Positions 34,480 to 34,754 of a stretch of DNA of 64,000 nucleotides are shown piece by piece. A program made the translations under genes and the position numbers. The number at the start of each line of letters is the position of its first letter. Position 1 is the stretch's first letter. The DNA comes from Simkaniaceae bacterium. GTDB lineage: Bacteria; Chlamydiota; Chlamydiia; Chlamydiales; JAJFMI01. The DNA is taken from assembly GCA_040880145.1 (NCBI GenBank), contig JBBDIZ010000029.1:1-64000 (forward strand), written 5' to 3'. The notes under the pieces were generated by a model. The model had not been told where the DNA came from, ran no database searches, and worked only from the letters and a program-made list of their open reading frames with translations.

Positions 34480-34508
34480 TTGTACAATATCCTGAATTTT
34501 GTTAGAGT
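34480..34508 (+). promoter_or_regulatory. Promoter for omegaRNA-like RNA and tRNA-Leu
   Basis: TTGTAC-N17-TAGAGT with extended TG; same -10 placement (6 nt before ACCTTT) as in the 43793 copy. Confidence 0.6.
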
Positions 34509-34514
34509 ACCACT

Positions 34515-34668
34515 ACCTTTAAAGGTCTACCGTGGGGCTCACGGGATGTTAAGCCTTTGGAGAGAACGGAAAACTTTTCAACAATAATTTGTTGCAAGGT
34601 TGTTCTCTGTGAATTAGGAATCCCCTGAATTTAGTCATAGGGAGTTGTCAAACTTTTCTTATCGGTTG
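34515..34668 (+). ncRNA. Stand-alone TnpB-type omegaRNA/reRNA (IS200/IS605 right end) plus 17-nt putative guide
   Basis: CTACCGTGGGGCTCACGGGATGTTAAGCCTTTGGAGA...GAAT-hairpin-GGGAGTTG-TCAA (ends 34651); homologous and covarying with 43633-43793. Confidence 0.75.
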
Positions 34669-34754
34669 GCGGAAGTGGCGGAATTGGCAGACGCGCTACC
34701 TTGAGGTGGTAGTGGGAGTTATATCCCTTGGGGGTTCAAGTCCCCCTTTTCGCA
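34669..34754 (+). tRNA. tRNA-Leu(GAG)
   Basis: GGCGGAATTGGCAGACGCG D-arm; CTACC-TTGAGGT-GGTAG; long variable arm; GGGGGTTCAAGTCCCCC. Confidence 0.95.

Follow-up and report, generated by a model that had tools for sequence, protein, structure and literature searches.

Insertion sequences can carry outward-reading promoters, and the retrotransposons Ty3 and Dictyostelium TRE target the region upstream of tRNA genes. In engineered polycistronic tRNA-gRNA arrays, RNase P processes the transcript at tRNA 5' ends. The target motif of ISDra2 is TTGAT, and TldR loci hold a tnpB-like gene beside a guide that matches the regulated promoter. TldRs are nuclease-dead, TnpB-derived RNA-guided repressors (10.1101/2023.11.30.569447); the RAGATH-18 motif is the core of the guide RNA (reRNA) of IS607-type TnpB (Rfam RF03064), and 20 nt is reported as the optimal guide length for the IS607 enzyme studied (PMC11061315); and omegaRNA-encoding PATEs for use in trans have already been described in Geobacillus stearothermophilus (Meers et al., 10.1101/2023.03.14.532601). 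Among the titles listed in literature searches, none dealt with a natural omegaRNA-tRNA unit, and those on tRNA-gRNA fusions concerned engineering only (e.g. PMC13370227).

We analysed a 64,000-nt stretch of Simkaniaceae DNA (the window) from an assembly of 1.26 Mb in 40 contigs that is 90% complete (G000). Direct reading of the + strand gives a promoter candidate (34480-34508) composed of the -35-like hexamer TTGTAC (34480-34485), a 17-nt spacer, a TG extension (34500-34501) and the -10 hexamer TAGAGT (34503-34508). On the same strand follows a 137-nt omegaRNA scaffold (34515-34651), which opens with the module ACCUUUAAAGGUCUA, continues with hairpin P1 (34530-34544), a RAGATH-18-like core (34554-34620) and a right-end hairpin (34622-34642), and terminates in ...GAATCCCCTGAATTTAGTCATAGGGAGTTGTCAA (...GGGAGTTGTCAA), with the right end ...GUCAA at 34651. 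The next 17 nt, ACTTTTCTTATCGGTTG (34652-34668, + strand), occupy the guide position and at the same time form the 5' leader of tRNA-Leu(GAG), whose base 1 follows immediately. This tRNA (34669-34754, + strand; ARAGORN; Rfam tRNA RF00005, 47.3 bits) folds as a cloverleaf with the anticodon GAG and a long variable arm. Its gene lacks an encoded CCA, is followed by a T-rich tract and is single-copy in the assembly, one of the 30 tRNA genes found. The order of promoter, 137-nt scaffold, 17 nt and tRNA-Leu(GAG) given in a first-pass annotation of this DNA was recovered with every part in its place. The divergent upstream neighbour is an open reading frame for YidD (yidD, 34175-34384, - strand; Pfam PF01809, 99.9 bits), and between yidD and the promoter lies an end piece of a short palindromic repeat family (34445-34465, + strand), unrelated to the scaffold and present in about 40 genome copies of 17-27 nt and 90-100% identity, often as outward-facing inverted pairs; a second end piece of this repeat stands in the window at 38275-38294. 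Contigs of two DNA runs from one study span the locus without differences, with no element-free form among them, and the two joints listed in these contigs are due to the short repeat at 34445-34465 and to tRNA similarity. A tRNA-Arg(TCG) gene follows 4.1 kb after tRNA-Leu(GAG).

Like the omegaRNA PATEs already described (10.1101/2023.03.14.532601), the window copy is gene-less, keeps a transposon end together with the omegaRNA and would need TnpB in trans. Two-ended copies of that kind also occur in this genome and in the window itself (43633-43898), but the copy studied here differs from them in having no left end, in carrying its own positionally conserved promoter and in adjoining a tRNA gene. 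The TnpB of the family is a close relative of that of ISDra2 (PDB 8H1J, 8EXA, 8BF8), and in both the omegaRNA overlaps the tnpB 3' end, ends at the right end and takes the flank as guide; by contrast, the window locus has no tnpB, the family target is TTAT, and the likeness to ISDra2 is one of protein sequence. With the reRNA of IS607 elements the scaffold shares the arrangement of the core, in which an outer CCU.../...AGG stem encloses GGAG, then an inner stem and UGAA...AGGAA. Membership in RAGATH-18 (RF03064) was nevertheless rejected, since the scaffold scores 24.0 bits, below the gathering cut-off of 44.9; the IS200/IS605-type ends, TTAT, the hairpins and a Y1 TnpA in the genome also differ from IS607, whose TAM is AG-rich whereas the target of the window family is TTAT. 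The locus resembles TldR loci as an immobilised guide RNA outside a transposon but has neither the adjacent gene nor the target, as the window contains no tnpB-like gene and the guide has no second match in the genome at up to 1 mismatch. As in engineered tRNA-gRNA arrays, the guide RNA would owe its 3' end to RNase P cleavage at the start of the tRNA; the predicted unit differs from these arrays in being natural, single and TnpB-type, with a 3' spacer. Finally, insertion sequences with outward promoters and the Ty3 and TRE retrotransposons offer the parallel of an element that, from upstream, takes over or spares expression, and of tRNA upstream regions as tolerated landing sites. Here the promoter is that of the guide RNA itself, and targeting is by the TTAT motif and not by the Pol III machinery.

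Folding of single sequences, of the scaffold alone or of scaffold plus tRNA, was no better than shuffles (z -1.15 for both), and we therefore relied on comparative structure. The scaffold is 76% identical over 124 nt to G000:C13:3776-3896, a match that directly follows a 107-aa open frame with the zinc-ribbon C-terminus of TnpB (PF07282, 85.7 bits). Full-length relatives of this fragment (384 aa, 85-92% identity) carry PF12323, PF01385 and PF07282 and match ISDra2 TnpB (PDB 8H1J) with an E value of 1e-72; because of these domains and this match, we call the family ISDra2-like. Identity rises to 85-86% with four copies in G006, a genome from another family of the same order, and these copies lie at contig ends or with the last tnpB codons. 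RNAalifold applied to an alignment of 11 copies yielded 18 consensus pairs, 6 of them with compensatory changes, and the covariance model scored the window scaffold at 151.1 bits. A leave-one-out model still gave it 140.9 bits, with one non-standard pair and the top rank among the 12 sources searched, and scored tnpB-linked copies outside the training set at 131-133 bits. The scaffold extends to the transposon right end, where a subterminal hairpin is followed by TCAA; read by eye, 6 of the 8 pairs of the G006 hairpin are kept. Homology, covariation and covariance scores, taken together, identify the scaffold as a genuine and complete TnpB omegaRNA of the ISDra2-like IS200/IS605 type.

The left end and the transposon genes are missing from the locus. 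Local alignments of the 130 nt between 34385 and 34514 to seven family left ends did not rise above dinucleotide shuffles, 14 to 135 of 300 shuffles reaching the observed score; a decayed left end at about 34401 (CTAT followed by GAC...), suggested by MAFFT, was rejected because its local alignments remained at or below shuffle level. Homology to other copies begins at about 34497, which places the -35 box outside the inherited sequence. Inside the element there is no open reading frame for tnpB or tnpA; PF07282 and PF01385 have no match in the window, and tblastn with a full-length homologue returned only a 26-codon ghost (34529-34606). The description of the element as immobilised, with neither left end nor tnpB, therefore stands: it is a tnpB-less omegaRNA with its own promoter and no detectable left end. 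It also departs from PATEs and MITEs in copy number, its subtype being single-copy in G000; the five G000 copies that are 98-100% identical to one another belong to another subtype and share with the window scaffold only about 50-65 nt at 82-88%.

The genome search for an intact or RuvC-dead tnpB, proposed along with the first-pass annotation, was positive for the 107-aa fragment on C13 and for family ends at contig ends, but neither Pfam profiles nor tblastn found an intact or RuvC-dead gene in the assembly, where PF07282 matches C13 only and PF01385 matches nothing. One gene for a Y1 transposase (TnpA) is present on contig C23. A tnpB-type right end stands at the start of three contigs, and left ends of the family, about 55 nt of each, were found at four contig ends. 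Because contigs stop inside right and left ends of the family, at least one multi-copy family element appears to have been left out of the assembly. The contigs that stop about 55 nt into family ends do so at the starts of C26, C23 and C7, at both ends of C11, at the end of C6 and at the start of C2. In G000 and in G082, the other genome with an omegaRNA-tRNA-Leu junction (see below), the sole assembled tnpB piece stands beside an omegaRNA (G000:C13:3900-4097 and G082:C37:4234-4434); it is an open frame that covers the C-terminal zinc ribbon in about 106-134 aa. An intact nuclease in G082 is not claimed, tnpB there being a 106-aa open frame only.

Complete gene-less relatives are found in the same genome. 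G000 holds five two-ended 266-bp copies, 98.1-99.6% identical to the copy on contig C21, each directly after TTAT, with the left-end hairpin first and GTCAA last. One of them lies in the window on the - strand (43633-43898) as an intact omegaRNA MITE/PATE in the order TTAT, left end, promoter, omegaRNA, GTCAA; it scores 127.6 bits with the covariance model and has a word depth of about 170 against about 30 in its flanks. Related two-ended elements were found at three loci in one Chlamydiae MAG, at eight metagenome loci and in G020, G080 and G082, and TTAT target and GTCAA end recur in all two-ended copies read. In the gene-less forms, the RNA opens with the module ACCUUUAAAGGUCUA. Among 10 copies, 8 have a TAnnnT hexamer exactly 6 nt 5' of this RNA module, and 7 have a TGn extension. 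The window copy carries both the module and the positionally conserved -10. By these comparisons, the scaffold is what is left of the right-hand side of a mini-transposon (PATE/MITE) that carried an omegaRNA and belonged to the ISDra2-like IS200/IS605 family. In a sample of 151 genomes from the order, the first covariance model detected the family in 15, and 13 of the 151 genomes of a second sample, drawn at phylum level, overlapping the first and falling entirely within the order, also gave matches. Judged by the record of the Chlamydiae MAG, this omegaRNA/PATE family is one of environmental Chlamydiae and is common there.

What, then, transcribes the tRNA? Since yidD lies upstream on the opposite strand, tRNA-Leu(GAG) needs a promoter within 34385-34668, and read-through from an upstream gene on the + strand would have to cross yidD. 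The TG-TAGAGT site ranks first in a lenient + strand scan of this interval. It is weak by consensus (7 of 12 positions, plus TG), and a strict consensus scan listed no + strand promoter, this site included. Inside the scaffold there are weaker -10-like hexamers at 34580 and 34583, without TG and with poor -35 boxes; the last 60 nt before the tRNA contain nothing promoter-like in either scan, and no terminator-like site was detected by scan between scaffold and tRNA. With yidD divergent and no better promoter at hand, the element's promoter very probably transcribes tRNA-Leu(GAG), as the first-pass annotation had proposed; it is the best and probably the only candidate. Transcription would start at about 34515, and scaffold, 17 nt and tRNA would be made as one RNA. 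The genome contains an RNase P RNA, and a cut at the tRNA 5' end, likewise proposed earlier and suggested by the context of the locus, would free an omegaRNA of roughly 154 nt with a 17-nt guide.

The 17-nt spacing, which had been flagged as possibly due to chance, can be compared with the promoters of relatives. Across 12 of these, the distance between tRNA-Leu(GAG) and the end of its best upstream promoter-like site is 10-41 nt (10-29 nt in 11 of them), and in the four relatives whose site scores at least 9 of 12 the distance from -10 to tRNA is 10, 13, 17 and 17 nt. In the window, the native -10 position coincides exactly with the junction of transposon end and flank. Because native -10 boxes end at a comparable distance from tRNA-Leu(GAG), we read the 17 nt as following from promoter geometry and not from design.

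The two same-family relatives G001 and G002 match the tRNA only and have an ordinary promoter, other upstream sequence and no scaffold. A search for the exact layout (scaffold core, N30-60, tRNA 5' end) gave 0 matches in public metagenome and genome contigs, collections that exclude the window's own genome. Downstream flanks were examined for 75 copies, the 67 matches of the first model and 8 further matches from the second sample. Two of them adjoin a tRNA, the window copy and one in G082 (contig C27), a genome of another family; both stand at tRNA-Leu(GAG) and both face it. A separate pattern search of 401 genomes turned up 10 in which GTCAA occurs 10-40 nt before the 5' end of a Leu-type tRNA. 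The window and G082 alone were confirmed by the model; the other 8 were rejected as chance GTCAA without a covariance-model match. The G082 copy (L062, G082:C27:3846-4120, - strand) is an intact 229-bp PATE, running from TTTAT and a left end to GTCAA, that reads towards tRNA-Leu(GAG) from 29 nt upstream; over its RNA part it shares 93% identity with a further G082 copy. Different subfamilies and unrelated leaders indicate that the two insertions are independent. Two of 75 copies at the same tRNA exceed the expectation for uniform insertion, which could be read as selection for the fusion. In G082, tRNA-Arg(TCG) lies about 1 kb beyond tRNA-Leu(GAG).

Joining the flanks of the G082 element restores TTGCAC-N17-TATATT, with the -10 spanning the insertion point. 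An empty site was not recovered from G012, a genome of the same genus, whose contig runs into another gene and has no tRNA. A second case is the MITE copy on C21 (G000:C21:7377-7642; L007:1396-1661), whose joined flanks form a perfect TTGACA-N17-TATAAT, 12 of 12; this copy faces an open reading frame for a 201-aa signal-peptide protein (L007:1698-2303) that begins 39 nt further on, a gene that now probably depends on the element. The genome has 16,110 TTAT sites, one of which scores 12 of 12 and 7.0% of which score at least 9. Two-ended copies number 11, and of the 10 that could be evaluated 8 score 6-8 of 12, as the background does; a general preference of the family for promoters was rejected on this ground. 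Insertions into promoters occur, and are evidently tolerated when the element points at the gene.

We consider it probable that the locus represents the right-hand portion, now immobilised, of a gene-less IS200/IS605 derivative that replaced the promoter of the tRNA, the guide RNA being a by-product. An omegaRNA element would have landed 3' of a TTAT, either within or next to the tRNA-Leu(GAG) -10 box, pointing at the tRNA, and would later have lost its left end; its outward-reading promoter would have kept the single-copy tRNA expressed, so that the tRNA would now depend on that promoter. We infer this insertion history from the present layout, and insertion into the -10 box is suggested by analogy, because the window copy does not allow its empty site to be reconstructed. 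The primary transcript would comprise omegaRNA scaffold, 17 nt and tRNA, and RNase P, cutting at 34668/34669, would leave a leader of roughly 154 nt that resembles an omegaRNA with a 17-nt 3' 'guide'. Such a leader could load TnpB from other copies but would find no target to cleave, since TTAT plus the flank, the one site cognate to it, no longer exists. Two observations, the undecayed scaffold and the same tRNA hit twice, keep other accounts of the locus alive. An undecayed scaffold despite the loss of the left end could mean selection on the RNA itself, and the unit may have been retained for a guide that acts in trans, made by RNase P and loaded into TnpB or a nuclease-dead relative encoded elsewhere, against an invading replicon, an element-free allele acquired by DNA exchange or a regulatory site. 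Such a role would fit the complete, consensus-like scaffold, the retained promoter, the TnpB-family sequence and further family ends in the genome, the two independent hits on one tRNA, and the length of the flank, 17 nt falling in the usual range of TnpB guides. We nevertheless judge it quite unlikely. At lengths of 14-17 nt, ACTTTTCTTATCGGTTG has no second site in the genome at up to 1 mismatch, and none of its 2-mismatch sites is preceded by TTAT; TTAT plus 16 nt of the guide has no exact match in viral contigs, and scaffold plus guide gave no blastn similarity in phage records. The target search that the first-pass annotation called for was therefore negative in genome, viral contigs and phage records. 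Another of its tests, conservation of the scaffold-17 nt-tRNA layout, also failed, the layout being absent from G001, G002 and public contigs; the assembly offers no intact or RuvC-dead tnpB, and the second case, in G082, is an intact mobile element with a 29-nt spacer. With no second target, no such layout in the nearest relatives, a different spacer in G082 and the geometry of native -10 boxes, domestication of the guide RNA, earlier put forward as possible, is not supported.

Promoter replacement with the guide RNA as a by-product, the reading we prefer, has also to be weighed against the quite unlikely case that the position is a selfish refuge. Promoter-bearing omegaRNA PATEs would be kept preferentially where they replace the promoter of an essential tRNA, since the host could not delete the element, which would gain a constitutive omegaRNA with an RNase P-set 3' end for homing; the window copy would then record such a capture in fossil form, and the G082 copy would be a living example. 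Two independent insertions at the same single-copy tRNA, both facing it, among 75 copies and 401 pattern-searched genomes are what one would expect from this, as is an intact G082 copy that splits the native promoter. On the other hand, n = 2, most copies are not at promoters or tRNAs, and orientation is uninformative because an insertion in the opposite orientation would silence the tRNA and be lethal. Also unlikely is that the element is an inert relic that yields no omegaRNA-guide RNA, either because transcription of the tRNA starts within or 3' of the scaffold or because the scaffold promoter is dead. The failure of the promoter in the strict scan, the hexamers at 34580 and 34583 and the poor single-sequence folding (z -1.15) would agree with this, but the internal candidates have no TG and poor -35 boxes, the family conserves the position of the -10 at 34503, and the last 60 nt before the tRNA have no promoter-like site. 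Unlikely, finally, is a broader proposal in which, in Chlamydiae, promoter-bearing omegaRNA mini-transposons take over the promoter of the essential single-copy tRNA-Leu(GAG) again and again. Each such event would create a natural omegaRNA-guide-tRNA dicistron with a guide 3' end set by RNase P; the element would obtain a guide RNA that is made constitutively and trimmed precisely, and could not be deleted without silencing the tRNA. After loss of the left end, the host would keep a transposon-derived tRNA promoter and an intact guide RNA able to occupy TnpB.

The firm result is one of annotation: an omegaRNA/PATE family in environmental Chlamydiae, together with the TTAT it targets, the promoter it carries and two insertions that split promoters. 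Should the co-transcript exist, the locus would be the equivalent in nature of engineered tRNA-gRNA fusions, with a TnpB-type guide and a 3' spacer, in which a host RNA-processing enzyme sets the length of a transposon guide. It would also indicate that the promoter of a guide RNA can become that of an essential host gene, a route by which remnants may be fixed in very small genomes. The present case consists of one decayed copy and one independent intact copy, both known from sequence.

One-ended remnants recur in the family, as promoter, omegaRNA and right end without a left end are also found, with the same flanks, in three metagenome contigs (L048, L051 and L052). In G000 itself, a diverged copy (G000:C9:9176-9295, 48 bits) keeps promoter, 5' module and P1, and its 3' part and right end are not recognised. 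G104 has about 15 places with a piece of 31-43 nt in which nothing but the right-end hairpin and GTCAA is present. Two complete genomes of one genus, each of roughly 1.2 Mb, have an orphan omegaRNA-like element in the same place, just 5' of a gene start and with similar flanks (L132, G286:C2:367401-367531; L133, G278:C1:1080155-1080279); judged by eye, the divergence of this element is similar to that of the intergenic flank.
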